From positions 1,817 through 65,816 of the forward strand of contig JBILVK010000006.1 in NCBI GenBank assembly GCA_044370475.1: a stretch of DNA of 64,000 nucleotides, given 5' to 3'. Position 1 is the first letter of the stretch; each line of letters opens with the position of its first letter. Positions 2,085 to 33,137 of the stretch are shown here, piece after piece. Source of the DNA: Bacteroidia bacterium (GTDB taxonomy: Bacteria; Bacteroidota; Bacteroidia; UKL13-3). The notes below the pieces were generated by a model. The model worked only from the letters and a program-made list of their open reading frames with translations. It was not told where the DNA came from and searched no databases. The position numbers and the translations under genes are program-made.

Positions 2085-3359
2085 TTAGTTGATTACTAAT
2101 TTTTGAGTGGCACGGCTATTCGCTGTTTTCACCTCTACTACATAGATGCCTTGGTTCAGACCAGAAACATTGATGCTGTGTAAAATGGTATTTGATGCTG
2201 CTTGATTGGATTGCAATACCAATTGTCCGTTTAGGTTATAAACGTTTACCTCACTTGCTTCAGAATTTGCATCATACAACACGCTTACATTTTCTGTTGC
2301 TGGGTTAGGATAAATGGCCATTTCAATGCGTGAATTACTAATAGAATTTAACCCAGTTGCAGGAGTTAATTTGGTTTTGTTAAACACGGTAGTTCCTGTT
2401 GAAGAGCCAGCAAATCTAGTGAATTGCAGTTTCCAGAAAGCGCCATCTTTAGCTTTTACGAAATAGCAAAGTGAGTCGGCAATTTTAAAACTCATGCCAG
2501 CTAATACTTTCCAATCTGCACCAATTTCTGAAATATTATTGTTGGTATCTGCAATGAAATTTGTGAGCGTGGCATCTGCTACAGGTATGCCTCTTGCTTC
2601 TGCTACCTTTACGCCCGCATTGGTTAAGATTCCTGTTGATGGATAATACATGTTTGCACCTGCTTGAAAGGCTCTGTAACGTGTTAACATGAAATCCCAA
2701 TCTGTTTTGTTTGGTTCTCTATCAATCACCGAATTGCTGAGTAGGTTTACATAAATAAAATTTCTATTTGAGAATCCACCACTTTGCCCAAAGGTATAAT
2801 TGGTTTCGTTTGAGCCATCAATATTGGCAGTTCTGAGCGACCATGTACCTAAGGCTTTGCTAACAACAAATACTTTTTTGTAGCTGGTACCTGCTCCGTT
2901 ATTAACTGCTAAAAGGTATAATCTTTGTCCGATTACATTGTGGCTATTGGCATCATACATGCCCCAACCATAATCATCGTTACCAGAAGAACTGCTGTTT
3001 AGCGCACCCATTTCCCAATCGGTATCCGAATTTTCTAATACTTTCCAAGCTTTGTAACCAGTGGTATCAAAACTTGCCCATTTGCTGGTATCGGTACCAG
3101 GCATTTCGTAGGCAACCACAGAGCCCATTCCAGAAGAGGAAGTCGCAGCATTGGTTCGAACCGAAACATTGAAGACACCGATACTGAAGCCTAGTTGCCA
3201 TTCGTTATTGGGACTAACCTTAACAGTACCTGTTTTAAGACTATAAAAAACATCGTTTGCATAAGCTGGGCCGGTAAGTATAGAATCTTCTACTGTTTGG
3301 GCCTGAAGATTCAGCATTCCAAGAAAAAGTGCCACTGAAAATAATAAAGATTTTTTCAT
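2085..3359 (-). CDS. HmuY-like (heme-binding family) secreted protein with a T9SS C-terminal sorting domain
   Basis: Signal peptide MKKSLLFSVALFLGMLNLQAQ. Two HmuY-like blocks: FYSLKTG...EWQLGFS...VRTN and DWDFMLTRYR...GILTNAGVKV. The C-terminal roughly 80 aa (IYPNPATENVSVLY...VYNLNGQLV...GIYVVEVKT...QKLVIN) is a typical type-A T9SS CTD. It ends 10 nt upstream of the TonB receptor start. Confidence 0.55.
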   Translation of the reverse strand: MKKSLLFSVALFLGMLNLQAQTVEDSILTGPAYANDVFYSLKTGTVKVSPNNEWQLGFSIGVFNVSVRTNAATSSSGMGSVVAYEMPGTDTSKWASFDTTGYKAWKVLENSDTDWEMGALNSSSSGNDDYGWGMYDANSHNVIGQRLYLLAVNNGAGTSYKKVFVVSKALGTWSLRTANIDGSNETNYTFGQSGGFSNRNFIYVNLLSNSVIDREPNKTDWDFMLTRYRAFQAGANMYYPSTGILTNAGVKVAEARGIPVADATLTNFIADTNNNISEIGADWKVLAGMSFKIADSLCYFVKAKDGAFWKLQFTRFAGSSTGTTVFNKTKLTPATGLNSISNSRIEMAIYPNPATENVSVLYDANSEASEVNVYNLNGQLVLQSNQAASNTILHSINVSGLNQGIYVVEVKTANSRATQKLVIN

Positions 3360-7197: not shown

Positions 7198-8327
7198 GAT
7201 AATTCTCTTTCTTTCCAAGTATAGGTTTTTATGTTTGCCCAAATGCCTATCACAATTACATAAATAATATGAAAGGGCTGAACCAATGGCAGCAACAAAA
7301 GCAATTGGGTCTCCCTAAAAAACCTTAAAACAACACCCAACATGAGTCCTTCTGCCAACATTTTAACTCCAAATTGAACCCCTAAAATCTGCCAAAATTG
7401 AGGGTCCCAAAAGCCCAAAATTAAATTGATAGGCATGCTTAAATTATAAAAATATGCACCTACTAAAATAGCAGTAATAAACCTGTTTTCGTACTTGGTA
7501 CTTTTAGACACCCATCTCCTTCTTTGTTGCGCAAGCGCACTAATGGTGGCATTGGGCGAGGTGCTTACTACTGCCCTAAAGTCTTTTAAAAAGGCTACTT
7601 CATTGGGCACTTCTTTAAATACTTTATGCAATAAATACTCATCGTCGCCACTGGCAATATGTTCATTGCCTGTATATCCTTCCACTTGTTCAAAAATAGA
7701 TTTAGTGAAAATCAAATTTGCTGCGCTGCACATATTAGGGTTCTTTAATTGAATAGCTGCGCCACCAATGCCAACTAAACCGGCAAACTCGAGCGACTGT
7801 GCCTTTTCAAAGAAATTGCCTGAACCAAAAAACACCGGGGCATATATAAATTGGACCTCTTGCTTTTGAATAAATTCATCGATGGCCATTAACCACTTTT
7901 CACCTCTGGTACAATCGGCATCTGTTAATACAATATAAGGATGATTAGCCAGTGAAACAGCATTGGTAATGCTATCTTTTTTACCTGCTATATTAAAGTC
8001 GTTGGCAGTAATGAGTCGTAAATTTGCTTGAGGATATTGTTGCTGAATTTGTTTCACCAAGCCACTTGTATTGTCTGTAGAATGATCGTCTAATACCAGC
8101 ACTTCAATTAGCTGTGCAGGATAATCTTGATTAAGTATTCCTTTGATGCATTCTTCAATATATAGGGCTTCATTTCTGGCTGGCACCAATATGGAGAATG
8201 CGTGCTTTGGTTCAGACCGAACAGAAGGTTTTTGATTGGGTATAAGGAGCCACCCCATAAAATAAATGAGGATGAGAAAGGCATATCCCAAGGCCAATAA
8301 ATAGCAAAATATTTCCCAATAACTCAT
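7194..8327 (-). CDS. Family 2 glycosyltransferase, membrane-bound
   Basis: FSILVPARNE, VLDDHSTD and TDADC motifs (GT-A DxD type), a QQRRRW-like motif, and N- and C-terminal TM segments. Confidence 0.8.
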   Translation of the reverse strand: MSYWEIFCYLLALGYAFLILIYFMGWLLIPNQKPSVRSEPKHAFSILVPARNEALYIEECIKGILNQDYPAQLIEVLVLDDHSTDNTSGLVKQIQQQYPQANLRLITANDFNIAGKKDSITNAVSLANHPYIVLTDADCTRGEKWLMAIDEFIQKQEVQFIYAPVFFGSGNFFEKAQSLEFAGLVGIGGAAIQLKNPNMCSAANLIFTKSIFEQVEGYTGNEHIASGDDEYLLHKVFKEVPNEVAFLKDFRAVVSTSPNATISALAQQRRRWVSKSTKYENRFITAILVGAYFYNLSMPINLILGFWDPQFWQILGVQFGVKMLAEGLMLGVVLRFFRETQLLLLLPLVQPFHIIYVIVIGIWANIKTYTWKERELS

Positions 8328-9268
8328 GTGCGAACTTTATAAATAAAATACATGCCTAGCATGGCTGGAAACAACATATTTACCATCCATAAACTATAGG
8401 CAGATAACAAAATGCCTTCGTGGTTATTGCTAAACAGGGTGAAAAACATCAATGCACTGGCGCCTCTGAGTCCTATCTCTAATAGCAAGAAAGAGGGCAC
8501 AACAGATTGCACGCAAAAGGTTCCTATGATACATGCAAAGGCCGCTTCTAAAGGCAATTCCACTTGAAAAAAATGCAACAGCAAAAAATACTGGAGCAAA
8601 AACACCGTATACCTTACAAAGGAAAGGGCAAGAATATAGAGGAGTTTTTGGGTGTTAAATTCGCCAAAAACATCTACGTATTTTTCAAATTTTTGAACCC
8701 ATTTCAGGTGCTTAAGTTTGGCGTAAATCCAACCTAACTTTAAATAAGCTGCAATAAACAAGCCCACTAAAACTAAACTCAATGGCAGAATAAATCCTTG
8801 CGTTACCAAAGTGCCCGTGAAATATAAAAGCGAAAACAAACCAAAAAACAAGGTCACAATCACCTGGGCGGTATGGCCAATAACTGTAACCAATGAACCC
8901 CTAAACTTATTCATCACCTCGAGGTGAATAACCCTGCCTGCAAAATCACCAATTTGGTTAGGCGTAATTACGCTCAAGGTTACGCCAGAAAAAACGGCCT
9001 TCACCGAGGTACTAAAATCTATGGGTTCAAAATTATCAATTAAAAATTTCCATTTCACAGATTCTAAGCCCCAATTCACAAACATCAAAAGAATTGCTGC
9101 TGCCAAAAAGTACCAAGCCCCTACATCTCTGGACAAATTATACTTCTCAAAAAGCGAATTAATGTGGTAGGCATAAAATAGTTTATACACTATAAATCCT
9201 GTTACTACCAACAGCAGAAGCACTTTGAGCGTTTTTATTACAGCTTTATATGTATGGGTTTGAAACAA
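8324..9268 (-). CDS. Lysylphosphatidylglycerol-synthase-TM-region-like (UPF0104, flippase-like) membrane protein
   Basis: 314 aa and polytopic. It overlaps the downstream GT2 start by 4 nt. GT2 plus UPF0104 is a recurrent gene pairing. Confidence 0.55.
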   Translation of the reverse strand: MFQTHTYKAVIKTLKVLLLLVVTGFIVYKLFYAYHINSLFEKYNLSRDVGAWYFLAAAILLMFVNWGLESVKWKFLIDNFEPIDFSTSVKAVFSGVTLSVITPNQIGDFAGRVIHLEVMNKFRGSLVTVIGHTAQVIVTLFFGLFSLLYFTGTLVTQGFILPLSLVLVGLFIAAYLKLGWIYAKLKHLKWVQKFEKYVDVFGEFNTQKLLYILALSFVRYTVFLLQYFLLLHFFQVELPLEAAFACIIGTFCVQSVVPSFLLLEIGLRGASALMFFTLFSNNHEGILLSAYSLWMVNMLFPAMLGMYFIYKVRT

Positions 9269-9330
9269 AGGATTACATTAACTATGTTTGACAAAATAAC
9301 GCATACCAAACTCCTAAACCAAATTCGATT

Positions 9331-9939
9331 TTGAATAAACCCAAAACTGTTAAAGAAAGAATCATTCTGGGAATCGATCCGGGTACCACCATCATGGGCT
9401 ATGGCATCATTCATACGTTTGGTAAAAGGGCAGAAGTGGTTACGCTTGGAGTGCTTAAATTGGATAAGTATGCCGACTATGCCATGAAGCTTAAAAAAAT
9501 CTTTGAGAGAACGGTTGGACTCATAGATGAATTTCACCCAGATGAATTAGCCATTGAGGCGCCTTTTTTTGGAAAGAACGTGCAAAGTATGCTTAAGCTG
9601 GGCAGAGCGCAAGGAGTGGCCATTGCAGCAGCTATGAGCAGAGAATTAACCGTCAATGAATATGCGCCTAAAAAAATAAAATTGGCCGTAACAGGTAATG
9701 GAAATGCAAGCAAAGAACAGGTGGCAAGCCTCCTGCAAAAACAGCTTAACTTTGAATTCGACAAGCAATATTATGACGCAACAGATGGACTAGCTGCGGC
9801 CTATTGTCATTTTACGCAAAACGACATAATCCCAGCAGCAGCAAGCAAGCCCAGTAAAATTCCAGCAAAGAAAAAAGCCTCCTCATGGGAAGCTTTTGTC
9901 AATAATAATCCAGATAAAATAAAGAAAAAACTTAGCTAG
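9331..9939 (+). CDS. ruvC: Crossover junction endodeoxyribonuclease RuvC
   Basis: ILGIDPGTTIMGYGII catalytic N-terminus and ATDGLAAAYCH near the C-terminal catalytic Asp. Apparent TTG start, with no in-frame ATG upstream of the catalytic motif. Lys-rich tail. Confidence 0.85.
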   Translation: MNKPKTVKERIILGIDPGTTIMGYGIIHTFGKRAEVVTLGVLKLDKYADYAMKLKKIFERTVGLIDEFHPDELAIEAPFFGKNVQSMLKLGRAQGVAIAAAMSRELTVNEYAPKKIKLAVTGNGNASKEQVASLLQKQLNFEFDKQYYDATDGLAAAYCHFTQNDIIPAAASKPSKIPAKKKASSWEAFVNNNPDKIKKKLS

Positions 9940-10328
9940 AAACTGCCTGCAATTCTATTCGCAATTTCTACCATTTCTAAAGATTCTAATTTCAATTTAG
10001 GATTGGCAAAATTCATTTCTTCCATCTTAGAAAAAGGAATCAAATGTATATGTGCATGCGGCACTTCCAATCCCATTACACATACTCCTACCCTGTCGCA
10101 ATTCATTGCCTTTTTAATCGCTAACGCGGTTAACCTCGCAAACTCTAGTAATTTATTATATTCGGTCTGATCCAAATCAAACAAGTAATCTACCTCTCGC
10201 TTTGGTATCACCAATGTATGGCCTTTTGTAAGCGGACTAATATCCAAAAAAGCAAGATGAAATTCGTCCTCAGCTACTTTATAACATGGAATTTCACCTG
10301 CAACAATTTTAGAAAATATACTCGCCAT
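9936..10328 (-). CDS. HIT family (histidine triad) nucleotide hydrolase
   Basis: 130 aa with histidine-triad motif HAHIHLIP. Confidence 0.85.
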   Translation of the reverse strand: MASIFSKIVAGEIPCYKVAEDEFHLAFLDISPLTKGHTLVIPKREVDYLFDLDQTEYNKLLEFARLTALAIKKAMNCDRVGVCVMGLEVPHAHIHLIPFSKMEEMNFANPKLKLESLEMVEIANRIAGSF

Positions 10329-10331
10329 TGC

Positions 10332-10808
10332 TTATAGAGTAATTTCTAACACTTCAAGTTTAATGCTACCTGCAGGCACTGTAACTTCGCAAACATCCCC
10401 AATTTTCTTGTTCATTAAACCAAGGCCAATTGGCGATTTAAAAGAGATTTTACCTGTCTTTAAATCCGCTTCCTTTTCATTCACCAAAGTGTACCAAATT
10501 TCCTTTTTAGAATTATGATTTAATACCCTCACCTTGGTAAGCATCATAACTGTATTCGCATTCAATTTACTTTCATCAATAATTCTAGAAACAGAAAGTA
10601 AGTTTTCCATTTTAGAAATTTTTGCCTCCAATAATCCTTGATCTTCCTTTGCAGCATGATACTCTGCATTTTCACTCAAATCTCCTTTGTCTCTTGCATC
10701 TGCAATTTGCTTGGTAATAAAAGGACGTTGAACATACTTTAAATCGTATATCTCTGCCTTTAATTTCTCCATTCCATCCTTTGTCAAGTAGTTAATCTCT
10801 GCTGCCAT
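10332..10808 (-). CDS. greA: Transcription elongation factor GreA
   Basis: MAAEINYLTKDGMEKLKAEI...GDLSENAEYHAAKE motif. I trimmed the start to the ATG at 10808, because the track's N-terminal extension overlaps the upstream terminator hairpin. Confidence 0.85.
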   Translation of the reverse strand: MAAEINYLTKDGMEKLKAEIYDLKYVQRPFITKQIADARDKGDLSENAEYHAAKEDQGLLEAKISKMENLLSVSRIIDESKLNANTVMMLTKVRVLNHNSKKEIWYTLVNEKEADLKTGKISFKSPIGLGLMNKKIGDVCEVTVPAGSIKLEVLEITL

Positions 10809-10832
10809 AATTCTTCTATTGTTAACGTAATA

Positions 10833-10872
10833 AAAACAAAAGAAACGTTCCGCCAAGGCGAAACGTTTCTTT
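10833..10872 (-). terminator. Intrinsic terminator of the PorV-family operon
   Basis: On the minus strand: AGAAACGTTtCGCC-ttgg-cGGaACGTTTCT followed by tttgttttt. It lies about 30 nt downstream of the stop at 10900. Confidence 0.5.
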
Positions 10873-10899
10873 TATGTAAATACAAATATAGTATAAATA

Positions 10900-12030
10900 T
10901 TATCCTTTTTTACCTCCAACTGTTAGTCTAATACCAACGGTGTGCATACCACTAAAAATTCTAGTAGGCGCATAGGCATAATCAATGGCCATTGAAGTAC
11001 CATTTTTAGATATTGGCAATTGGAAAGTTGCTCCAGCCCATAATCCATAAACTGGATTCATGTACTGTGGATCTGCCATTTCTTTCGTAAACAATTGATT
11101 GTCGCCAGTAACATTATATGCCACCCTTAACATCGCCAATTCTTTGTAAGCATACTCAGCACCAAATCCGTAAACATTAGACTGAAAAGCATTATAATTA
11201 AAGTTAAAAGAACCCGTTAACCTGTGGTAATAAGTGTCTGCAGTTTGGTCTAAACGCATATCATAACCCAAACCAATATTTACCAAGGTTGGCAAGTTAA
11301 ATTTGTCGGCAGAAAAATATGCTTTACGATCGGCTCCTGTTTGAGAGTTAATGGCACGGAATGAAAGTCCAGAACCTCTGTAAGTAAGATCGGGACCAAT
11401 ATTACGCATAGAAATACCCAACCTAAAATCTTCTTTCTTAATCTTGTTTTTCTCTTTCTTAGGATTTAAAGCTGTTTGGTATTGAACACCAAAATCAAAA
11501 GCTATTCCTTGTGCTTTCACATCCTGAATACCCTCAGAAATCAACCTCAATAAAAAACCTCCAGTGATACTGTTAGAGAATTTTTTGGCATAAGATGCAC
11601 CAATGTTTACTACTTGCGGACTAAATGTTGGCAAGGTACCATCTGGGTTATCATAAGTGGTAATTGGAATACTTCCAAAGTCCCACGAAGAGAATCCAAG
11701 GCCAATTACCCCACCATCGCCATTTTCTCCTACTGCCTGAGCCAAACCAAAGTTATTGACAAAAACACCTGAACCTTGTAAGAAACTCATGCGCGAAAAA
11801 GCAACATCTGTTTTGGTGGTATACGCCAAACCGGCAATGTTCAAGTTAAAGGATTCTATTCCACGAACAGATGCAGTATTAGCACCACCATATCCCGCAC
11901 TCCTGGCGTATGGATTAATATTCAATTGAGTAGCACCCGCTCCTCCCGAACGATCAGGATTTCCTCCGAATACTTGGCTGCTAACAAGTAGCATTCCAAT
12001 TAATCCAAATTTTGTTATAGCTATCTTCAT
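10900..12030 (-). CDS. PorV/PorQ-family outer-membrane beta-barrel (T9SS cargo-shuttle family)
   Basis: Signal peptide MKIAITKFGLIGMLLVSSQVFG. Family-typical N-terminus SGGAGATQLNINPYARSAGYGGANTASVRGIESFNLNIAGLAY. About 375 aa of alternating beta-strand pattern. I prefer the start at 12030; the track ORF extends to 12066. Confidence 0.65.
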   Translation of the reverse strand: MKIAITKFGLIGMLLVSSQVFGGNPDRSGGAGATQLNINPYARSAGYGGANTASVRGIESFNLNIAGLAYTTKTDVAFSRMSFLQGSGVFVNNFGLAQAVGENGDGGVIGLGFSSWDFGSIPITTYDNPDGTLPTFSPQVVNIGASYAKKFSNSITGGFLLRLISEGIQDVKAQGIAFDFGVQYQTALNPKKEKNKIKKEDFRLGISMRNIGPDLTYRGSGLSFRAINSQTGADRKAYFSADKFNLPTLVNIGLGYDMRLDQTADTYYHRLTGSFNFNYNAFQSNVYGFGAEYAYKELAMLRVAYNVTGDNQLFTKEMADPQYMNPVYGLWAGATFQLPISKNGTSMAIDYAYAPTRIFSGMHTVGIRLTVGGKKG

Positions 12031-12066
12031 ATTACTATTTTTTTTCAAGTTAATAATGACATCCAA

Positions 12067-15000
12067 TTAGAATGTATCAAAATCCGCTGGACGCATAATT
12101 CCAAACCATTTAATCACTCTTTCACCAATTCCATCTGCATACACATGTACCAAATAAACACCACTCGAAATAGGCACATTTGCATCATTTTTCAAATCCC
12201 ACTCTAAATAGGTTTTGCTATCATCATCTTTCTTAACTCTTCTTACCAAGAAACCACTTTGTGTATAGATAGAAACCACACATTTCTTAGGAAGGTTAAT
12301 GATTCTTACACGTGTGTCTAATTGATTGCCTGGATCTTCATAACCAGCATAAGCATAATAAGGATTTGGTGTTAAAGAAACCATATCTAAAGCATTCTTT
12401 CCAATCTCTTTGGTGCCAATTGTTGGTGCCAAATCAGTAGTAGAGAAAGTGTATAACGGCAAGCTATCATTCACAGATGCACCATCTAAAGGCGCTAATT
12501 TAGCATATGGACGCTTCACGTTAATATTGATTTTCACCTCGCATGGAATTCCTCCACCATTGGTAGTTAAATCACCCAATACTGTTTTTGGAGTAACCAA
12601 TGTCATACTCACCCACATAGCTTGTGAATACAAATAACGCAAGTTAATAGGCTGTCCATTTTCAACTTTGGTTAACAATTCATTGTAGCTGGCGCCTTCG
12701 TCATACCTAGGTCCTCTGTATAACACTGTACCAGACAATTTAAATGGTTTTGACCCCATTACATAAATATGATGCTTACCACCCATTTTATAGTCCAAAC
12801 CAGCCATTGTTTGAGTCACCAAGGTGCTTGTTGGATTCCAAACCATATCTGTTCCATTTTCCAATGGCAGCGACGAATCTTCAGCAAACATCATGTTTAA
12901 GCGCTCTCCAGTTTCTTTGTTAATTGCATAACCAGGGAACCAACCCATTCCATTTCCAGTTCCATCTGGTTTGCCATCTTTACCTACCGATGGAGATCTT
13001 CTCCTGTTCATTTTAGGAGCATTACCAACGTTTAAGGCAGTGTTTTCACCCGCTTCAATCACCACACAACGAGACCATTTTGTCTTGTCTGGAGTTATCA
13101 CAACCAAAACACTTCTTAAATCAGACAATGGATTGTCTGTAGAATAACCACCAGTACCTGCAGCCCAAGCTGGACCATAAGTTGGTTGTGGACTAACAGC
13201 CCTTGCAGCTAATGAATAAGGAGCCCAAGTTCCTTCAACAACTTTATTGTATTGTCTTCTAGGGTCAATTGGACGTTTAGCAGTACCTACTGCTTCTGCA
13301 AAATCATGCTCATATGGATTGGTAAATCCAGGAGTTCCTGTATTTCCAGCCCTGATCCAATTAAATGGAACCAATGAAGCCATCTCATCTGAGATACCTG
13401 GTAACCATTCGTTGGTAGGATCTGAATATTCTTTGGTAGAAGATAAGAATCCATTGGCGTCATCATTGATATTGTCTGGCTGACCAGGACCTACCACTTG
13501 ATTTACAGAAATACTCAAACCTAATTCTGCAAACAATTGCTCGTTTCTGTTTGCAATATTGGTCTCACCATAATATTTGGCACCCGTTTCTAAATTGGTT
13601 AAAATCCATTTTGTAGAATCTGCAGTTAAGCTATCCGCTTTTACAGATGAAGCCGAAGAATCTCTTAACCTTAATTCAAAATTTGAACTTGGAACTTTAA
13701 ATGGATCTACTACTTTAATAATCACAGGTCCACTACCTCTAGCATAAGTTGGAGTTGGAACGTAATAAGGAGTAAGTAATGCTTTTTCTATGGTAGCTTG
13801 ACTTAATAACAAGGCATTACCAGAGTTGCCAATACCTTCGTATTTGGTGATCTCAGGACCATCGCCCCAGAAAGTATTCAAATTAGTTCCTTGGTTATGT
13901 GGAGTTGGTTTGTGTGGTACACCTCCCCAAACTTTAATTGCAGTACCATCTAACATTTTACGTCCAGCTAAATATTGTGTTGCGTCTACAGAACAGTTAG
14001 TAGCACTTGCATAAGCAACCAATAGGTAATAGTAATTTTGAAAGTTTACCAAAGTAGGATCAGATAAGGTAGAGAATGCATCTTTCGTAATTTTAATACT
14101 ATGTCTTACACCTTTGTCTTCTCCAGATACCATGATTTTTTTCACTGAACCCAAATCTGGATCATTCACCATGTTTACCATCAATCCATTACCATCTTGT
14201 ACATCGCACTGAGCTACTAAACGAGCTTCCTCCGTATTGTATAAATCACTTGGAGTAGAATTTCTCTTTAATTGAAAAATTTGATACCCTTGAAATTTAT
14301 AATTTGTCTTATTTGAGCATAAGCCTGCAGATGAATCACGGTAAGACTCTGTAACCTGATAATTGGTAATATTCAAAATCAACTCTCTATCTAACTCAAC
14401 AACATCAATGGTTGGAACCCTTGGTCCGTCCACAATATTGAAGTTGTTTTTATAAAGAACATAAGCTTTATCTGAAGCTTCTTTTAACAAGTTAAATGAA
14501 CCTGTAGCACCTCCTGTAGTAGCACGTGCCCAAACAACTGCAACAGTTACCTCATTTTTTGAACCAGGCAATAAACTAAATGTACCTGCAGTTTGTAAAA
14601 AACGTCTATCACCAGGATTATTTCCTGCAATACGCTCTGTCCAATCAGCTCTTCCAGCTGGATCTGTTTTACCAGGGAACATAAAACTAGCTGTATCTGT
14701 ACCTCCACGACCATTACCACCGTAAGTGATATTTAAACCATCTTTCCAACGTCCATTCAAGTAATTCCAATAGTGCTCAGGACGTGATGGGTTTCCTGTT
14801 ACAGAGAAGTCATTATTGTAATATACAAATTTTGTTAAACCAATTTCTGAGGTATCTGATCCTACGATGCGACTTGGACCTTCAAAGAAGTTTACTCCCA
14901 CACTTGGTGGATTTAAACCGTATCCTAAAATACCCTCATCGTTATCATCTCCATTGTAGCAAATACCTAAGTTTCTTTTCACATCGCACTCAACATAGTC

Positions 15001-15900
15001 ATCAGAGTAGTTACCTAAATCGGCATCAACCCACTGACCAAAAATACAGCTATCAATTGTCTCTGTACTTCTATTATAGATAGTAGTACGATAGAATGTC
15101 ATGTTGTTAATTTCATCATTGGTAGAATATGCAAAACTTTGTGTATGCAATTCTAATCCAATTGGTAAACCTTCCGATTCAGAGTGAATATTACCTTTAT
15201 CATTGTAAATAGTATACAACATCATATCAGGAATATTGCTCAATACATTATGGTCGAACGAAGGGAAATCACCTTCTTTATACTCATAAAGACCATTATT
15301 GTTCATGTCGTAAAATGGAGCTAAATACTGAGCTTCACCTAAACCATCCAATATGGGATTTCCTGGCCATGTAGCAATTCCATCAATTGGATTGTCCCAA
15401 AGCGATTGATTATTGGTAAATTCTTCAATTTCAGCTAAAGTAACCTTCCAAATTTTATCATACGATTTACAACGTGCTGCAGAAATGGAAGCCGAACCAT
15501 CAATTTGTAAAGCACCTGGGTAATAGTCATTACCACTTTGGCGATAGGTTTGAGCAGCAATTCTTAAATTTCCTTGGGTAATTCCACCAATCCACAAAGC
15601 ACCAGAAAACAAAGAATGCTTAGATGTTTGTCCAGATTCTACCTTTGGTACTTCGTAACGGGCATTTTGTAAATTCCACCAAACATCCCCTCCATTTAAA
15701 ATGGTAGTACGAACGTTATTCAAATCTAAATCCTTTTGTTGAGTTGCAGCAGCACAACCCGCACCCATCTTTGCTAAGGATGGCTTAGAGGTCTTTTTTA
15801 GCTGACCAATATTCTCCTTTGCCATACCTGCCTGCCCAAACACTAACATTGCGGCAGCAAAGGCAAATGATTTTACAATTCCAAATGTATATTTTTTCAT
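12067..15900 (-). CDS. Very large secreted protein of unknown family with a C-terminal CTD-like (FlgD-Ig or T9SS-type) beta-sandwich
   Basis: 1277 aa with a signal peptide. The C-terminus reads LTPNPYYAYAGYED...RVRIINLPKKCVVSIYTQSGFLVRRV...WDLKNDANVPISSGVYLVHVYADG...IKWFGIMR. It directly abuts the PorV-family gene. I saw no C25 peptidase-type motifs by eye. Confidence 0.5.
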   Translation of the reverse strand: MKKYTFGIVKSFAFAAAMLVFGQAGMAKENIGQLKKTSKPSLAKMGAGCAAATQQKDLDLNNVRTTILNGGDVWWNLQNARYEVPKVESGQTSKHSLFSGALWIGGITQGNLRIAAQTYRQSGNDYYPGALQIDGSASISAARCKSYDKIWKVTLAEIEEFTNNQSLWDNPIDGIATWPGNPILDGLGEAQYLAPFYDMNNNGLYEYKEGDFPSFDHNVLSNIPDMMLYTIYNDKGNIHSESEGLPIGLELHTQSFAYSTNDEINNMTFYRTTIYNRSTETIDSCIFGQWVDADLGNYSDDYVECDVKRNLGICYNGDDNDEGILGYGLNPPSVGVNFFEGPSRIVGSDTSEIGLTKFVYYNNDFSVTGNPSRPEHYWNYLNGRWKDGLNITYGGNGRGGTDTASFMFPGKTDPAGRADWTERIAGNNPGDRRFLQTAGTFSLLPGSKNEVTVAVVWARATTGGATGSFNLLKEASDKAYVLYKNNFNIVDGPRVPTIDVVELDRELILNITNYQVTESYRDSSAGLCSNKTNYKFQGYQIFQLKRNSTPSDLYNTEEARLVAQCDVQDGNGLMVNMVNDPDLGSVKKIMVSGEDKGVRHSIKITKDAFSTLSDPTLVNFQNYYYLLVAYASATNCSVDATQYLAGRKMLDGTAIKVWGGVPHKPTPHNQGTNLNTFWGDGPEITKYEGIGNSGNALLLSQATIEKALLTPYYVPTPTYARGSGPVIIKVVDPFKVPSSNFELRLRDSSASSVKADSLTADSTKWILTNLETGAKYYGETNIANRNEQLFAELGLSISVNQVVGPGQPDNINDDANGFLSSTKEYSDPTNEWLPGISDEMASLVPFNWIRAGNTGTPGFTNPYEHDFAEAVGTAKRPIDPRRQYNKVVEGTWAPYSLAARAVSPQPTYGPAWAAGTGGYSTDNPLSDLRSVLVVITPDKTKWSRCVVIEAGENTALNVGNAPKMNRRRSPSVGKDGKPDGTGNGMGWFPGYAINKETGERLNMMFAEDSSLPLENGTDMVWNPTSTLVTQTMAGLDYKMGGKHHIYVMGSKPFKLSGTVLYRGPRYDEGASYNELLTKVENGQPINLRYLYSQAMWVSMTLVTPKTVLGDLTTNGGGIPCEVKININVKRPYAKLAPLDGASVNDSLPLYTFSTTDLAPTIGTKEIGKNALDMVSLTPNPYYAYAGYEDPGNQLDTRVRIINLPKKCVVSIYTQSGFLVRRVKKDDDSKTYLEWDLKNDANVPISSGVYLVHVYADGIGERVIKWFGIMRPADFDTF

Positions 15901-15931
15901 AATCGATGCTTTTTATATTAAACTATAATAA

Positions 15932-18900
15932 TTAGAAATATAAGGCAAGTCCCAAACGTGTTAACCTTGGTAAGGCAAAACGATCTGGATTCACCATCCT
16001 GATATTATATAAGTCAACATATGACTGCTGATTGGTTGCAGTCTCAACTTGCTCTTGTGAAGCAGGAGAAGATAAGAAACCATCATTGTAGGCAGAACCT
16101 GTATAACGATATACTCCGGTTACGTTAGCAGTATTCATTAAATTCTGAACCATGATGAATGCACGCAAACGATAAACAGTTGTAGAACCGTCAATCTTCT
16201 TGTTCTTAAACATAAACGATTTGTCTATGTTCAAATCCACATTGAATTGTGGTGGCAAGTTTGCTCCATTGATGGTTCCTTTTACCGGACTCCTTACTAC
16301 AACTCCAGATTGAACACCACCTGGTGTTGGATTCAAATCTTGGGTATAAGGTCTTCCAGAATAACCATTGAAACTTACGTTGAAACCTGCATTTTCAAAT
16401 ATTCTTTTACCGTTTACAATTGGACCAGTATACTCTTTTACGCCTTCTTTGTAATGGTAATCAAAGATGAATTTGAAAGTATGACGGGTATCAAAATCCA
16501 TTGGAACCAAAGTACGTAAAGTTGGCAAACCTACTTGGATTAATGCACTACTTGAATTTGCATTTGAACCAGTACCATCTGCAAATTGCAATTGGTAGTT
16601 AGCGGTTATGGTAATATTCCCTAACTCTCTAACATTGTATTCTAAACCAATACTCTTTACAGTAGAAAAGTCTAAGTTACCGTAAGTAGTATAATCATTT
16701 GGCCAAGCTTGAACGTAACGATACAATTGAATCAAGTTTCTGTATTCACGGTAAGAAGCAATAATTCCTAATGCTGCATCTTGTCCAATTTGCTGACGGA
16801 AACCAATTTCATAATCCGTTACCTGAGTCATTTTCAAATCTGGATTTGCAATTGCTCCACCACTCAAACGATTTTGCAAATAGAAATAATCATCTATCTG
16901 ACCTACGTTTGCATTTGGTCTTTGGGTTAAGATATCATAAGTACCAAAGAACTGTGAAGTAGTTGAAATAGGGAATGAGAACCATATACGAGGTAACAAT
17001 TTAATGTCTGGCACATAATCTGTAAACGAAGCTGCAGTTGGCAACTGAGGATTTTTTGGATCAACCAATAATGGCATATTTCTATTGGTTTTAGCTTCCC
17101 TGGCAATTTGTTGAGGATCTGTTATTGGATTACCATTTTTATCGTACCATTTGTTTCCATCACGGTATCCCATAAACTTAGCGTTGGTTACTCCAGCACT
17201 AGAAGCTTGTTGGTCTGGATCTTTATCTACATAAGGAATAAAATTATCACCAATGGTGGTAGGAATATTTCCAGCATCTAAAATACCTAATTTCTTAGCT
17301 TCACCTACAGTATACAATGGAACCATTGAATATGGATCTTTTAATACCGCTTGGTTCGCATCAAAACGCTCCATACGCACACCAACCCTTACAATTAAAT
17401 CTTTAAATACAAATTTGTCCTGAACCCAAGCAGCAAAATAAGTTGGCTGATAAGATGGCAACAAACGTGCATTTGAATCTGTTAAGAAATCATTGATGCT
17501 TGGGCGCTTTCTTACTATTCTACCCAAATGATCATAACCAGAATAGCTTACCACACTGTTACCATTGTTCAACAATTCATTAGCAGAGAACATATCCAAT
17601 GAATAATCTGATGGCTTGTACGAGTTAACATCAATAAATGAATATTGATCAATTGGTTTACCATATGGATCAACTGCGCCATTAGCAATTAACCTGTTTC
17701 TAAAGTTCTTATCAAAATTTGTTTGCTCTGAAGCAACAATTTTCCTTTTAAAATTAACTGTATCATTAAATACTCCATTCTGGTCAACACCTACTGAATA
17801 TAAAGCAGAATCTAATCCAGAGAATTGTCTGTTTGCATACAACCTAGCCATTGTCCACAAGCCTGTGGTTCCTAATGAATAACTTCTTCTAAATTGTTGC
17901 TCAACATTTAAACCAATTTGGATTTCATGCTTAGCTTTTGGATTGCTTTTTGGCGCAATGCTAAACTCACTTTGAATGTATAAGTTAAAGGCCTCATTCA
18001 TGCTTTTTCCGTAACCAGCTTGTTGTGCTCCTACGTTACCCCACATGTTTGAGTAAATACCGTTAGGGCCATCACCATTAATTAATCCACCTACCTGGCG
18101 AACTGCTCCTGGTGACCTTAACATATTTGAACCAAAATAGTCATATACCGATCTGGTGTAGTTACCTCTTACCTCATTGTAATTTTTATCTTGCTCAAAA
18201 GCATACAAGGTATCTCTGTAACCTACATGCCTGTAGTAGTCTGTTAAATACAATAAATCACCATTTTCAGTTCTAAAAGTATCTGCCGAACTACCCAACC
18301 CTTTAATAATACGAGCATAATTTGGTGCAGAATAAGTAGTAAACTTACCTACATAACCATAATTAAAGAAATCTCTCTGATGCTCAGCATCCATTGATTC
18401 TCCATAACCTCTTTCATACGATAAACGCACGCTGTAATAAGCATTGCTAATATTAGAGGCTTTTTTCTTAGCTTCCTCGTCTTTGTCTTTATTTTCGTTT
18501 TTAAATGTTTGGGTAAATTGTAAGTATGCCCTTGTGGTATAATTTCTTTGAAATCCATTGTTGGCAGAATTTAACAAAGAATTGAATGAATTCCAGTTAA
18601 CACCTTGACTATAGTTTCCATAATAACCCAAACGAACATTGATATTATTGGTAGGTTGGAAGTTAAAGTTACCACTCAAATCTGCACTATATGAATTTAC
18701 ATTCTGACGAACATTCACTTTCTCTAAATCTGCATTGGTTAAATACTCTGCTGCTGGAAACAAAGATCCTGCCGCTCCTGGTACAAGGGGAGTTTGTTGA
18801 ATTTGCTTTAACTTCTCGTCTTTAACTTTGTATAAATCTACTGCCGATAAACTCTTTGAATAAGTAAATGCACCCGAAACTAAGAAGCCTAATATAACAC

Positions 18901-19723
18901 GCTCCTCAGATCCTCTTCCTTTATTAATGGTCTTAATTGGACCTGATAAAAACCCTTGAACATTGTTGTATTGACTGTTGTCTAAATAACCAGTGAAAGG
19001 CGATGCAGTTGTAACCTCTATTCCGCCTAACAAGGTTTTTGTAGGGGCTTTAGTAGTAATTGAAATTGCTCCTCCCACAAAGTCGCCATATTGTGCTGGA
19101 GTACCACCTGTAATTACTTGAATTTGATCAATGGCATTGGCAGGAATATTGGTAGAACCACTTTGCACACGAACACCATCAATATAATATGCAGTACCAT
19201 CTGCACGCGAACCACGGAATATAGGAGTACCTCCCGACCTAGATTCAACACCTAAGGCTGTACCGGCAATTTTATCTACACTACGTGTTCCTAAAGCCAA
19301 AATTTCCTTATTGGTCTTAACGTCTCCTTTAACCCCGCCTGGATCTACCAAAGCCTTTTTGTGCTTAATGATAACCTCATTTAGCGTAGTACCATCAGAT
19401 GGATCCATTCCAAAGTTTACAAATCGATCTTCTTCAGGCGCAATGTTAATGCTCTGAATGGTTACGTTTTTGTAACCTACAAAAGAGGCAAACAAATCGT
19501 ATTCACCTGGTTGTAAGGTCTTAATTACGTAGCCTCCATCGTCGTCTGTCATGGTTGTAGCCTTAGTAACACCATTTAACTTAATGGTGATACTCACAAA
19601 ATCCATTGGCTTTTTAGTTTTATTGTCCTTTACAGTTCCCCTTAATGTTCCCATTCCTGATTGGGCATGTAAGGCAATCTGAAAGCCGAATAAAACGGCG
19701 AGTAAAATGTATATTTTCTTCAT
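15932..19723 (-). CDS. Oversized TonB-dependent-receptor-like outer membrane protein (CarboxypepD_reg-like domain, plug and a long barrel; Oar-like)
   Basis: 1263 aa. Signal peptide, then GTLRGTVKDNKTKKPMDFVSITI...GGYVIKTLQPGEYDL (carboxypeptidase regulatory-like). Plug motifs IFRGSRADGTAYYIDGVRV and IQVITGGTPAQYGDFVGGAISITTK. Terminal RLGLALYF. It sits 31 nt upstream of the 1277-aa gene. Confidence 0.8.
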   Translation of the reverse strand: MKKIYILLAVLFGFQIALHAQSGMGTLRGTVKDNKTKKPMDFVSITIKLNGVTKATTMTDDDGGYVIKTLQPGEYDLFASFVGYKNVTIQSINIAPEEDRFVNFGMDPSDGTTLNEVIIKHKKALVDPGGVKGDVKTNKEILALGTRSVDKIAGTALGVESRSGGTPIFRGSRADGTAYYIDGVRVQSGSTNIPANAIDQIQVITGGTPAQYGDFVGGAISITTKAPTKTLLGGIEVTTASPFTGYLDNSQYNNVQGFLSGPIKTINKGRGSEERVILGFLVSGAFTYSKSLSAVDLYKVKDEKLKQIQQTPLVPGAAGSLFPAAEYLTNADLEKVNVRQNVNSYSADLSGNFNFQPTNNINVRLGYYGNYSQGVNWNSFNSLLNSANNGFQRNYTTRAYLQFTQTFKNENKDKDEEAKKKASNISNAYYSVRLSYERGYGESMDAEHQRDFFNYGYVGKFTTYSAPNYARIIKGLGSSADTFRTENGDLLYLTDYYRHVGYRDTLYAFEQDKNYNEVRGNYTRSVYDYFGSNMLRSPGAVRQVGGLINGDGPNGIYSNMWGNVGAQQAGYGKSMNEAFNLYIQSEFSIAPKSNPKAKHEIQIGLNVEQQFRRSYSLGTTGLWTMARLYANRQFSGLDSALYSVGVDQNGVFNDTVNFKRKIVASEQTNFDKNFRNRLIANGAVDPYGKPIDQYSFIDVNSYKPSDYSLDMFSANELLNNGNSVVSYSGYDHLGRIVRKRPSINDFLTDSNARLLPSYQPTYFAAWVQDKFVFKDLIVRVGVRMERFDANQAVLKDPYSMVPLYTVGEAKKLGILDAGNIPTTIGDNFIPYVDKDPDQQASSAGVTNAKFMGYRDGNKWYDKNGNPITDPQQIAREAKTNRNMPLLVDPKNPQLPTAASFTDYVPDIKLLPRIWFSFPISTTSQFFGTYDILTQRPNANVGQIDDYFYLQNRLSGGAIANPDLKMTQVTDYEIGFRQQIGQDAALGIIASYREYRNLIQLYRYVQAWPNDYTTYGNLDFSTVKSIGLEYNVRELGNITITANYQLQFADGTGSNANSSSALIQVGLPTLRTLVPMDFDTRHTFKFIFDYHYKEGVKEYTGPIVNGKRIFENAGFNVSFNGYSGRPYTQDLNPTPGGVQSGVVVRSPVKGTINGANLPPQFNVDLNIDKSFMFKNKKIDGSTTVYRLRAFIMVQNLMNTANVTGVYRYTGSAYNDGFLSSPASQEQVETATNQQSYVDLYNIRMVNPDRFALPRLTRLGLALYF

Positions 19724-19834
19724 TTGACGTAGAATTTACTATTTCAAAACAATTTTTTAAGAGCGGTAAAATAAAGTAGTTAAATTGAAAATAACAAAAT
19801 CTATTTACCCCAAAACCAAACCGAATAACAATTT

Positions 19835-20761
19835 TTAGCTAAAAGTGAGCAACTTAGTGAGTATTACCTCCGAAATTTTAGCATAACTTTCTTTCGTCCA
19901 CCCCCCAATATGAGGGGTCAAAATCACATTTTCACGTTTCGAAAGCTCCTCAAACAACTTTTTCTCCTCCAAATTTAGCTCCGCTAAATTTTCATTTTCT
20001 AAAACATCTAAGGCACATCCCAAAATTTTCCCTTGATCCAATCCTAAAATTAAATCATCTGTTTTAACCACTTTTCCCCGACTCAAATTCAACAAAAAAA
20101 ACGGCTTTTTAAATTGCTCAATTAAATGTTGGTGAAGATAGTATTTGGTTTCAACAGTTAAAGGAACATGAAAACTCAAAATATCTGCTTCTGCAGCTAT
20201 TTGATTCCAGTTACTTTCTACCACCCATTTTGACCCAAAACCCGTAAGATATTTGTCGTACACCAATACCTTTACGCCAAAACCACTTAGCTTTTTAGCC
20301 ACTGCCTTGCCCGTATTGCCATACCCAATAATCCCAATCGTTTTTCCTGCCAATTCAAGCCCTCTGTTGGCTTCCCTTAACCAAATACCTTGTTTCACTT
20401 GCGCATGTGCCCTAGATAAATGATTAAGCAACATCAACAACATGCCCAAGGTATGCTCGCCCACCGCATCAGAATTGGCTTCCCCAGCATTAAAACAAGT
20501 AATCCCCCTTTCACTGGCCAGGTTTAAGTCAATATTATCTAAACCTGCTCCGGCTCGGGCTATCACTTTCAGTTTCTTTGCAGCTCCCAACACCTCTGCA
20601 TCTATGGGCGTTTTGGTTCGGACCACCAACACTTCTTGCTCTTCAATTAGGCGAATAATGTCTGCTCGATTTGCATTTGGTAAATAAAGAACGTTATGTC
20701 CAAGATCACTTAAGCCTGTAATTAACAGCTCATGAACATCATCAACAATGAAGATTTTCAT
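19835..20761 (-). CDS. D-isomer-specific 2-hydroxyacid dehydrogenase (phosphoglycerate dehydrogenase-like)
   Basis: NAD-binding GKTIGIIGYGNTGKAVAKKL, catalytic LTPHIGG, and ARAGAGLDNID. Start chosen at MKIFIVDD; the track ORF starts 11 codons earlier. Confidence 0.75.
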   Translation of the reverse strand: MKIFIVDDVHELLITGLSDLGHNVLYLPNANRADIIRLIEEQEVLVVRTKTPIDAEVLGAAKKLKVIARAGAGLDNIDLNLASERGITCFNAGEANSDAVGEHTLGMLLMLLNHLSRAHAQVKQGIWLREANRGLELAGKTIGIIGYGNTGKAVAKKLSGFGVKVLVYDKYLTGFGSKWVVESNWNQIAAEADILSFHVPLTVETKYYLHQHLIEQFKKPFFLLNLSRGKVVKTDDLILGLDQGKILGCALDVLENENLAELNLEEKKLFEELSKRENVILTPHIGGWTKESYAKISEVILTKLLTFS

Positions 20762-20833
20762 ACCCTGCTTTACAACTTCTAAGTTACCTTTCATGTTATT
20801 AGTAATATTTTTTTAATATAAGGTTGCACCAAG

Positions 20834-30820: not shown

Positions 30821-30859
30821 AAACAGTCGCTATTTGCAAAAGTAGCGACTGTTTTTTTT
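30821..30859. terminator. Intrinsic terminator between convergent accC and the DUF748-like gene
   Basis: AAACAGTCGCTA-tttgcaaaag-TAGCGACTGTTT followed by a T-run. Confidence 0.55.
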
Positions 30860-33137
30860 ATTCCTTAGCCACATAGTTTACCACATACCTAGAAACAGTT
30901 TCGGTATTTGCAGCATCTTGTTTTGGCGTATTTACTACATTGAATTGCTTTGGATTTACCTTTTGACTAACTAAGTAATTTCTTACCCAACTATTTCTTC
31001 TTTGCATAGCATTTAAGGTTATGGCCGTTAAACGTTCATCGGAATAAATTCGTTTCATTTGCTCTTGCATAGGTAATTCAGCGTCGGACTTGTTGGGCAA
31101 TTGGCTTCCCACATAAGCTTTAAACAAACTATCTTGAATATCTACCATGCCTAAAGTATCAACCATTACTTGCGTAAAGCTATCTAATTTAACTTGGTGT
31201 TGGTGCTCATAAAAACCTTGTTTTAGTAAAAACATACCCCACTCTTCTTTTTCTAATTCAATATTACTAACCTGAACCAACTCTACAGCTAACTCTGGTT
31301 TTGTTTTAAGTATTTGTGCCGTTTTATTCAGTTGATCTACTTGCTTGGCGATAAGGCCAACCTGCAAAAATTCAATTTTTATTTCTTTCAAATCCTCTTC
31401 CTTATGGCCAAATAAATTTGCTAATAATTTATAGGGTCCCATAGCTGCCTTAACAAAGATGTTCTTTACAATACCCCATACAATCTTTCCAATTTTATAA
31501 TGAGGGTCATCTAAATTCCCACTTACTGGAACATCTAAATTTATATTGCCTTTATAATCCTTTAACAAGGCAACCGCTAGCCTTACAGTAATAGAAGCGG
31601 CCGTTTTATTCTTCTGCTTTTTACCTACATAAACGGTATTTATGCTGAGCTTGTTTTCAGATTTCAAATCGTGGTTGGCACTTATGCTCGTTCTACAATG
31701 GTAATTAACTACTCCATCTAAGAAGGGATGAGCTATATAATATACCATGTATGGGTTAAAATCAGACATGCGCAAATTGCTTATGGTATAATCCATATTA
31801 AGATTTTTAAAATCTTTAGGATTAATTGCCACTGTACCTTTTAGACTTCCTGATTTGTTAATAATAGAACGCGCATGAAGGGTTAAGAATTTGTTGGTAG
31901 AACGCAAATTGCTTGCACTTAAATTCATGTTTGAAAGCTCAAAATTAAACTTGTTTTGCAGGGTATAATCTCTAAAAGTGATGGCACTATTTTTAAGTGA
32001 AAAGTCCTTGGTACTATATCTACTCAAATCTTGGTTGTTAACCACATCCTTGGTATAATAGGTTAATACCAAAAACGGATTATCGTAAGGTATGCTGGCT
32101 GTATCACCAGTGGCGACAGTAGTTTCGGCGGCAGCCGCTGCAAAGAGTCTATCAAAATTGCTTCCTTTAGGGTACATTTCATATATCAAAAACAACCTAT
32201 CAATATCTAAAGAACGCAAATCGTAAACACCATGTTTTACATCAATTGTATCAACTTTAAGCGTCATGTCTTTTACCCCAAATAAAGGATAACCTTTGGA
32301 GTCAATCACCTTAATTCTACTTAGGTTTAGCAAACCCTTAATACCTAAATTTGCAGGGTCGTTAAAATTACCAGCAAGCTGAAGGCCCGTATTTACCTCA
32401 CCTTCTAAAGATTTAACTTTAATAATTTCTTTTAAGTACGAATACCAAGCACTCAAATTAAATTGCCTAACGCTTATATTCATTTGGTAATCCATACTTT
32501 TGGAATTGAGCTTAATTAAATTACTAAAGCGGCCACCGGTATTCAAATCAAAATCAATTTTATAAAGCATATCTGCCCTATTCCAAGCTAGCTGTGGCGT
32601 TTTAATAAATAGCTTTTCAATGGCCAAAGTATTCCCTAAACTGCTATTGGTATAGGCTATTTTTGCATTCGAAATCTGGGCGTTTACCACACTCCATTTT
32701 GTTGGAAGTGTATCTGCCGCTAAAGGTTCTGCAGTATCTGATGCAGATGCAAACCGCGCAATCAAATCATCGAAATTAAAATGCGCTTCCCGTTGTGTAA
32801 TATTAATTTCGGGCTGATCCAATTTAAAAAGGGTGATATCGTATTCGCCGGCAATGGCCTTTTTAATATTTACTCCAGTTTGCAAAGCCGCAATTTTAAC
32901 AAAAGGAGTTTTGCCATCCTTTTCGTATAGCACCAATTTGTTTATCTCTAAATTGCCTGTCAATAGGTTCAGCCAAAAGCGCTCTACGGTAATTTCTCTA
33001 CCAACAAATTGGGTATCATATTTCTCTATTGTCCATTTGCATATAGGGGAGATAAAGGCAAATAAGAGCAGGAAGCCTATTAAGAGCACAGCTACAACGC
33101 TTAACAGGATTTTATAAGATAATGGCAGTTTTCTCAT
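30858..33137 (-). CDS. DUF748/AsmA-like membrane-anchored protein
   Basis: 759 aa with a single N-terminal TM anchor. Repeated beta-rich segments and an HFNFDDL motif resemble AsmA/DUF748 family proteins. Assignment by resemblance only. Confidence 0.45.
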   Translation of the reverse strand: MRKLPLSYKILLSVVAVLLIGFLLLFAFISPICKWTIEKYDTQFVGREITVERFWLNLLTGNLEINKLVLYEKDGKTPFVKIAALQTGVNIKKAIAGEYDITLFKLDQPEINITQREAHFNFDDLIARFASASDTAEPLAADTLPTKWSVVNAQISNAKIAYTNSSLGNTLAIEKLFIKTPQLAWNRADMLYKIDFDLNTGGRFSNLIKLNSKSMDYQMNISVRQFNLSAWYSYLKEIIKVKSLEGEVNTGLQLAGNFNDPANLGIKGLLNLSRIKVIDSKGYPLFGVKDMTLKVDTIDVKHGVYDLRSLDIDRLFLIYEMYPKGSNFDRLFAAAAAETTVATGDTASIPYDNPFLVLTYYTKDVVNNQDLSRYSTKDFSLKNSAITFRDYTLQNKFNFELSNMNLSASNLRSTNKFLTLHARSIINKSGSLKGTVAINPKDFKNLNMDYTISNLRMSDFNPYMVYYIAHPFLDGVVNYHCRTSISANHDLKSENKLSINTVYVGKKQKNKTAASITVRLAVALLKDYKGNINLDVPVSGNLDDPHYKIGKIVWGIVKNIFVKAAMGPYKLLANLFGHKEEDLKEIKIEFLQVGLIAKQVDQLNKTAQILKTKPELAVELVQVSNIELEKEEWGMFLLKQGFYEHQHQVKLDSFTQVMVDTLGMVDIQDSLFKAYVGSQLPNKSDAELPMQEQMKRIYSDERLTAITLNAMQRRNSWVRNYLVSQKVNPKQFNVVNTPKQDAANTETVSRYVVNYVAKE

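Follow-up and report, generated by a model that had tools for sequence, protein, structure and literature searches.

Three adjacent genes on the minus strand of a Bacteroidia bacterium (GTDB lineage UKL13-3; NCBI GenBank assembly GCA_044370475.1, contig JBILVK010000006.1) were analyzed within a stretch of 64,000 nucleotides (positions 1,817 to 65,816 of the forward strand), which is called the window hereafter and from whose first letter all coordinates are counted. In the order of transcription they encode a TonB-dependent transporter (TBDT; 1263 amino acids (aa), 15932–19723), a giant protein of 1277 aa (12067–15900) and a barrel of the PorV family (listed as an open reading frame (ORF) of 388 aa, 10900–12066). 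A preliminary description made from the sequence had singled out this trio and could not assign it to a described system. Our survey of the literature on PorV-like and PorQ-like proteins, and on type IX secretion systems (T9SS) combined with TBDTs, led to the same result, as neither the trio nor the family of the giant protein nor its C-terminal tail was found described there, and the three genes probably encode an undescribed cell-surface machine.

The transcription unit

The three genes are packed as closely as had been claimed, with 31 nt between the TBDT gene and the giant-protein gene and 36 nt between the latter and the PorV-like gene. The second distance depends on the start codon that is chosen: the ORF as listed starts from a TTG directly next to the stop codon upstream (spacing 0), and the first ATG, at 12030, leads into a signal peptide of typical form (MKIAITKFGLIGMLLVSSQVFG/GNPDR...), so that 10900–12030 (minus strand, 376 aa, signal peptide MKIAITKF...) is the plausible extent of the gene. 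The unit is closed by a single intrinsic terminator (10836–10875, minus strand, read from 10875 to 10836), in which an 18-bp stem is closed by a 4-nt loop and followed by a T-run. Its predicted folding energy (dG) of −24.1 kcal/mol compares with −7.6 ± 2.5 kcal/mol in shuffled sequences (z −6.6), and 0 of 200 shuffles were as stable, which bears out the strong hairpin reported earlier. The terminator is placed between the stop codon of the PorV-like gene and the start of greA; the ORF list has greA overlapping the hairpin, and the true greA start, an ATG at about 10806, removes this overlap.

At the other end, the intergenic region 5′ of the TBDT gene (19724–19834, minus strand) is conserved over its promoter-proximal part of about 75 nt (about 19724–19800). 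An alignment of 13 upstream regions of related loci has the near-invariant block TTTTGTTATTTTCAATTTAACTACTTTATTTTACCGCTCTTAAAAAATTGTTTTGAAATAGTAAA there, while the bases just after the stop codon of the upstream gene are variable; by eye, the block holds TTTG and TAnnTTTG-like motifs that are candidate Bacteroidota promoter elements. Rfam was searched for a clue to the substrate, and no riboswitch or other RNA family was found upstream of the TBDT gene within the window. The gene immediately upstream of the trio (19835–20794, minus strand) encodes a 2-hydroxyacid dehydrogenase similar to phosphoglycerate dehydrogenase, it keeps this place in most related loci, even in those with a giant protein of only about 40% identity, and the stretch that separates it from the TBDT gene holds no predicted terminator. 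Taken together, the short gaps, the single strong terminator and the conserved upstream block point to a transcription unit that comprises the TBDT, giant-protein and PorV-like genes and has its own start and stop. We hold this operon structure, together with the identities of its components given below, with high confidence.

The three gene products

The first gene product consists of a signal peptide, a carboxypeptidase-regulatory-like N-terminal domain (residues 26–119; CarboxypepD_reg, 55–56 bits in Pfam), a plug (residues ~135–245; PF07715, 39 bits against a cutoff of 23.9) and a barrel that spans about 1000 residues, has very long loops and ends in an aromatic beta-signal (...LGLALYF). 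A candidate TonB box, LNEVIIKH (consensus of the orthologues LxxVVIxxKK), was recognized by eye between the N-terminal domain and the plug. The Pfam barrel model PF00593 was undetected in the 1263-aa protein and is present in homologues that are 38% identical to it. The AlphaFold2 model of residues 120–1263, built with 57 sequences, reached a predicted local distance difference test (pLDDT) of 87.9 and a predicted template modelling score (pTM) of 0.83, and a Foldseek search of the PDB gave 175 matches at E ≤ 0.001, of which the best 50 listed are all TBDTs, at template modelling (TM) scores of 0.54–0.78 normalized to the target. Among them are PirA, YddB, PhuR, PfeA, BtuB and XusA (E 1e−25 to 1e−20, with 1.5e−25 for PirA; TM 0.6–0.78, with 0.74 for BtuB and 0.73 for XusA of B. 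thetaiotaomicron). Judged by this model, the protein is a TBDT, in line with the plug-and-barrel architecture proposed for it earlier; the accompanying label "Oar-like" holds for the order and architecture of the domains and reaches no further. The roughly 450 residues by which it exceeds ordinary TBDTs are located in a few very long loops (59, 98, 117 and 60 residues), which are conserved to the same degree as the strands (0.60 vs. 0.59) and nearly gap-free in orthologues down to 37% identity. Such conservation of long loops is unusual for TBDTs and fits a conserved surface for a ligand or a partner. A SusC/SusD-type locus was considered and rejected: SusC and RagA models of NCBIfam gave no match to the TBDT at E ≤ 0.01, and its neighbours are the giant protein and the 2-hydroxyacid dehydrogenase, with no SusD-type gene beside it, as the preliminary description had already noted. 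Elsewhere in the window, a 579-aa ORF (62259–63998, minus strand) bears a faint likeness to TonB-dependent receptor barrels (E 0.002–0.008) and could represent a piece of a further transporter gene; it ends within 2 nt of the right edge of the window and its true start may lie outside.

The third gene product matches the family model PorV_fam (NCBIfam NF033709) with 120 bits (cutoff 90) over 323 of the 326 profile positions. It falls below the equivalog models of both PorV (NF033710, 54.5 bits vs. a cutoff of 250) and PorQ (NF033711, 55.6 bits vs. a cutoff of 220), and in the NCBIfam scan neither the PorP/SprF models (TIGR03519-type) nor the type B model matched at E ≤ 0.01. The single sequence had no match in the PDB; a profile of 36 orthologues matched the solved PorV of Flavobacterium johnsoniae (6h3i_F, E 1.3e−14), and a faint match to the PorV model PF19572 was seen in a distant orthologue. 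The mature protein starts, after the signal peptide, with the conserved sequence GNPDRxGxAGATQL. Since the family model was passed and both equivalog models were failed, the profiles identify a third kind of paralogue, a genuine PorV-family barrel apart from both PorV and PorQ, and the assignment to this family in the preliminary description was right.

The giant protein begins with a Sec signal peptide, continues with a body that is almost all beta (residues ~27–1170) and ends in a C-terminal domain (CTD) resembling those of T9SS cargos (residues ~1170–1277; 12070–12393, minus strand). The whole protein had no match in Pfam and a single one in NCBIfam, a weak hit to PorZ (E 0.00051) that is confined to the C-terminal tail, and it had no match in the PDB by sequence, either as a single query or as a profile. 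When the CTD was isolated, its best scores were to the C-terminus of PorZ (E 1e−5), to FlgD_ig (E 0.0016) and to the C-terminus of PorU (E 0.009, last ~80 residues), and a profile of 38 CTDs found PorZ (5m11, E 0.087) as the sole T9SS structure in the PDB. The score against Por_Secre_tail (TIGR04183/PF18962) is 18.2 bits (E 0.0018), below the curated cutoff of 23. Of the earlier claim of a CTD-like end, the quoted C-terminal sequence was recovered, and the domain, similar to the tails of PorZ and PorU, does not reach the type A threshold. It carries the motifs PNPYY and SGxYxxH and a conserved lysine (K in 67 of 73 orthologues, R in the remaining 6), and the lysine at this place of a CTD touches PorV in solved substrate-translocon complexes (PMC10994853). 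Some homologues have been named "T9SS type A sorting domain-containing" by NCBI. From these sequence comparisons, the C-terminus would be a divergent type-A-like T9SS domain that is closest to the tails of PorZ and PorU.

Past the last strand of the CTD, the alignment of 73 orthologues revealed a conserved extension of 13 residues (12070–12108, minus strand) with the consensus [FYM]-G-[IV]-M-R-x-x-D-[FLY]-D-[TS]-[FY]-COOH and K-W just before it; the glycine, both aspartates and the terminal aromatic residue are invariant. The two canonical type A cargos of the window stop right behind their last strand, at ...KLVIN and ...KLMVAHK, while the giant protein continues with these 13 residues. One of the two is a 424-aa protein (2085–3359, minus strand; Por_Secre_tail 61 bits) with an unassigned body, the other a 472-aa esterase-like protein (33375–34793, minus strand; Por_Secre_tail 28.6 bits). 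Their occurrence in the window indicates that the organism uses a T9SS, and a normal system of this type is therefore probably present.

The structure prediction of the giant protein that had been suggested was run on the body (residues 27–1170) and resulted in a multidomain model that is almost all beta (pLDDT 79.8, pTM 0.65). The local matches that Foldseek found, to glycoside phosphorylases and GH116, are weak (E 4e−5, TM 0.16–0.22) and would fall on the beta-sandwich domains of those enzymes, because beta structure makes up almost the whole model, with no helical catalytic barrel. They are too weak for the assignment of a function, and glycan binding by the giant body is a hint at most. 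An identity as PorU, the C25-type sortase, was rejected in agreement with the earlier reading, as neither Peptidase_C25 nor T9SS_sortase matched the whole protein, and structures of PorU, of C25 peptidases/gingipains and of PorZ were absent from the best 50 fold matches of the body. Anchoring as a lipoprotein was rejected as well, given that no lipobox is found at the end of the signal peptide; the only conserved N-terminal cysteine, C48, is located about 27 residues past the hydrophobic core and behind charged residues. The mature N-terminus (residues 27–48) is composed of a conserved A-K/R-E-N-I/V-G, a variable linker of about 15 residues and the invariant C48, and this stretch has low AlphaFold confidence.

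The family of the giant protein is large. A word-indexed search retrieved more than 4311 homologues, all of them unnamed or named "T9SS type A sorting domain-containing", and clustering at 50% identity yielded 7268 clusters with E ≤ 0.001 and 2419 with E ≤ 1e−30. Every named member that was sampled is derived from a metagenome-assembled genome (MAG), and no cultured carrier was found among the 80 GTDB loci described below, the top 120 homologues and a sample of 20 clusters. Pfam searches of six longer members detected inserted Ig-like, cadherin-like or BNR repeats and nothing else.

Conservation of the trio and other features of the window

Relatives were sought by scanning one genome per GTDB species, which uncovered at least 589 stretches encoding a relative of the giant protein, and the best 80 loci were used for comparison. 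All 80 are from Bacteroidota MAGs (a few of them mislabelled), several of which belong to lake or reservoir series. The PorV-like gene lies directly 3′ of the giant homologue in 72 of 73 testable loci (median gap about 35 nt) and the TBDT gene directly 5′ of it in 59 of 60 (gaps 5–47 nt, median 21.5), so that the gene-neighbourhood check proposed in the preliminary description found the order of the trio kept, and the linkage of the three genes is near-obligate. The lone exception (L048) stands by itself as an additional copy of the giant gene; its genome carries the complete trio as well (L050). This solo copy (7932–11753) is adjoined by a histidine kinase gene; a PorV-like gene beside it was considered and rejected, since the upstream ORF encodes the kinase. 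The trio is also kept in representatives at about 40% identity (P0363, P0310), and a further one of these (P0389) is a solo paralogue. Duplications occur too: in L073 a second pair of giant-protein and TBDT genes (13213–17100 and 17120–19777) is located downstream of the PorV-like gene, and in L050 and L061 (189–3968) two TBDT copies stand in tandem upstream of one giant gene.

The flanking housekeeping genes (2-hydroxyacid dehydrogenase, greA and the gene of a HIT protein) are syntenic in most loci too, and synteny alone is therefore no proof of a shared function. The giant protein is 43–57% identical across lineages in which GreA is 53–65% identical. The distance matrices of the three proteins, a mirror-tree signal inflated by protein length and shared phylogeny, correlate at 0.90–0.95 within the trio, as opposed to 0.52–0.86 with or among the flanking genes (28 loci), and partial correlations controlled for three flanking housekeeping genes are 0.67–0.80. 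For the CTD, the best partial correlation is with the PorV-like protein (0.56 vs. 0.43 with its own body). We regard these correlations as weak evidence.

Several other genes of the window have unusual features. A 680-aa protein (43171–45213, minus strand) has an OmpA/Pal-like peptidoglycan-binding domain at its N-terminus (residues 28–131), an unusual order for OmpA-domain proteins, followed by about 550 residues with no family match. In a 683-aa ORF (41117–43168, plus strand), the alpha (residues 17–330) and beta (residues 357–671) subunits of pyruvate dehydrogenase E1 are apparently fused. Rho (57589–59574, plus strand) has 661 aa compared to about 415 in the model, which it matches over residues 4–659, and this implies a large insertion in its N-terminal part. 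Three large ORFs had no NCBIfam match at E ≤ 0.01 (30858–33137, minus strand, 759 aa; 47798–49714, plus strand, 638 aa; 49719–52022, plus strand, 767 aa), the last two of which are adjacent on the same strand.

A candidate surface machine and its alternatives

We propose that the operon builds an outer-membrane complex in which a giant protein, exported by the T9SS and held on a PorV-like barrel of its own, works at the cell surface together with the TBDT. To our knowledge, the T9SS is the only known surface route in Bacteroidota for a protein that lacks a lipobox, and it is therefore the remaining known way by which the giant protein could reach the surface; it would cross the outer membrane through the type IX system of the cell. 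Its CTD and the 13-residue tail would then stay uncleaved and docked on the dedicated barrel, as PorU is docked on PorV and PorZ on PorQ, with the invariant tail as the obvious candidate for an extra contact with the barrel. This retention is suggested by the published model of the two pairs, in which PorU and PorZ keep their CTDs and are bound to PorV and PorQ, respectively (PMC10202324), and by the suggestion that cognate PorV-like barrels shield a CTD from cleavage (PMC10202324). At the surface, the giant protein would be a non-lipoprotein partner next to the TBDT that captures or processes a substrate, which the TBDT would import with energy from TonB, in a role that may parallel that of the surface lipoproteins serving SusC, BtuB or XusA. 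A glycan would be the first guess for the substrate, based on the weak fold likeness to carbohydrate-active enzymes. We lean slightly towards the docking of the CTD on the PorV-like barrel; a joint complex that includes the TBDT is put forward more tentatively, and the chain as a whole has, in our judgement, a chance of somewhat less than one half.

Several observations weigh against this proposal. The CTD stays under the curated Por_Secre_tail cutoff, no precedent was found for the extra 13-residue tail, and the hint of glycan binding comes from a weak fold match (TM about 0.2). Type A CTDs have been reported to all use PorV itself (PMC12618676), which would make a type-A-like CTD with a barrel of its own an exception. 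Solo paralogues of the giant protein exist with neither partner (L048, P0389), and the mirror-tree signal, with its inflation by length and phylogeny, comes from 28 loci only.

The same observations can be arranged differently. The giant protein could be a structural or adhesive component, a surface coat or adhesin that is anchored by the PorV-like barrel and has no role in transport, for which the all-beta, multidomain body, the Ig-like, cadherin-like and BNR inserts typical of surface proteins and the occurrence of solo paralogues would speak; but its high identity across lineages, relative to that of GreA, is unusual for adhesins or coats, and the tight coupling to the TBDT gene would be left unexplained, so that we consider this unlikely. 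That coupling, near-invariant with its gaps of 5–47 nt and its paired paralogues, is equally unexplained if the TBDT gene is merely adjacent and the other two genes contribute a component found in this lineage to the T9SS attachment machinery, in which the giant protein would functionally stand in for PorZ or PorU and the barrel would act as its PorQ-like partner. The tails of PorZ and PorU are indeed the best matches of the CTD, PorZ-PorQ and PorU-PorV are CTD-barrel pairs (PMC10202324), and the trio stands amid housekeeping genes and is about equally conserved, yet outside the CTD there is no likeness to C25 peptidases or PorZ, neither PorU nor PorZ is among the best 50 fold matches, and the barrel is equally far from PorQ and PorV, which makes this explanation improbable in our view.

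A dedicated export module, in which the plugged TBDT would serve as the exit channel of the giant protein and the PorV-like barrel would receive its CTD, making the SprA translocon unnecessary, also appears quite improbable. A CTD cargo that comes with a big barrel and a second one of PorV type recalls the logic of SprA, PorV and Plug, the trio is self-contained, the barrel region of the TBDT exceeds the usual size by about 450 residues, and a TBDT, Oar, is required for the secretion of PopC in Myxococcus (PMC6434023). The model of the TBDT aligns over its full length with ordinary TBDTs, however, the lumen of which is far too small for a folded protein of 1277 aa, and the type A cargos in the window indicate that a normal T9SS is probably present. 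Finally, the three genes might be conserved neighbours only, with an inherited order, independent functions and a CTD that is just an Ig-like fold. The synteny of the flanking housekeeping genes in most loci and the sub-threshold score of the CTD would allow for this, but the operon-tight gaps and the one terminator that closes the unit, the joint duplication of the TBDT-giant pair in L073, the closer correlation of evolutionary distances among the three proteins than between them and the flanking genes, and the known functional pairing of a PorV-family barrel with a CTD-like tail all argue against it, and we consider it very unlikely indeed.

Compared with described systems, the trio shares features with several. 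The PorU-PorV and PorZ-PorQ pairs of Porphyromonas gingivalis likewise join a barrel of the PorV/PorQ family to a large secreted protein whose CTD is type-A-like, but the body of the giant protein has no C25 or PorZ likeness, its barrel fails both equivalog models, and the trio has in addition the 13-residue tail and a TBDT gene in the same unit. TBDTs with a carboxypeptidase-regulatory-like N-terminal domain are co-encoded with a large partner in SusCD, BtuB-BtuG and XusA-XusB as well, and both XusA and B. thetaiotaomicron BtuB belong to the structural matches of the TBDT. The known surface partners of TBDTs are lipoproteins, whereas the partner in the trio is neither a lipoprotein nor SusD-like and would be anchored by its CTD and a separate barrel. 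A cargo gene that adjoins the gene of its own barrel is familiar from SprB-SprF of Flavobacterium johnsoniae and other type B/PorP-SprF pairs, in which the linked PorP/SprF-like barrel directs the secretion and the final location of the type B CTD cargo (PMC12618676, PMC9143113); in the trio, by contrast, a type-A-like CTD goes with a barrel from the PorV/PorQ family. In the BamG-BamH pair of the Bacteroidota BAM complex (the machinery for beta-barrel assembly), a FadL/PorV-type barrel of 14 strands grips a large surface protein by its extracellular loops (PMC12578637), and a barrel of this type together with a large surface protein is also what the trio offers, although BamH is a lipoprotein, BamG, which is homologous to FadL/Toluene_X, is tied to BamA, and no BAM component is encoded in the trio. 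Oar of Myxococcus xanthus, which has been linked to the export of a protein (PMC6434023), agrees with the TBDT in the order of its domains (a carboxypeptidase-regulatory-like N-terminal domain followed by the TBDT); it is from another phylum and lacks a partner of the PorV-like or CTD kind.

That a cargo is encoded next to its own barrel is already known for type B, and what would be new here is a type-A-like cargo, a PorV-family barrel and a large unannotated family. In the current picture, private shuttles (PorP/SprF) are confined to type B cargos. If the proposal is true, the "cognate shuttle" rule would extend to type-A-like CTDs, which could be served by a shuttle or anchor of their own instead of PorV, and the escape of a CTD from cleavage could be studied in the trio as a natural system. 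With 7268 clusters, good conservation and no domain annotation, the giant family represents a sizeable blank in the genomes of environmental Bacteroidota. The trio may be a third way of equipping a Bacteroidota TBDT with a surface partner, namely a giant non-lipoprotein that is delivered by the T9SS and permanently bound to a private PorV-family barrel by a modified type-A CTD with a 13-residue C-terminal latch, possibly one and the same machine in many uncultured Bacteroidota (several of them from freshwater), a generalization that we offer as a tentative one. Such a class of T9SS-delivered partners would amount to a new building plan for TBDTs with surface partners, which are central to the feeding of Bacteroidota.

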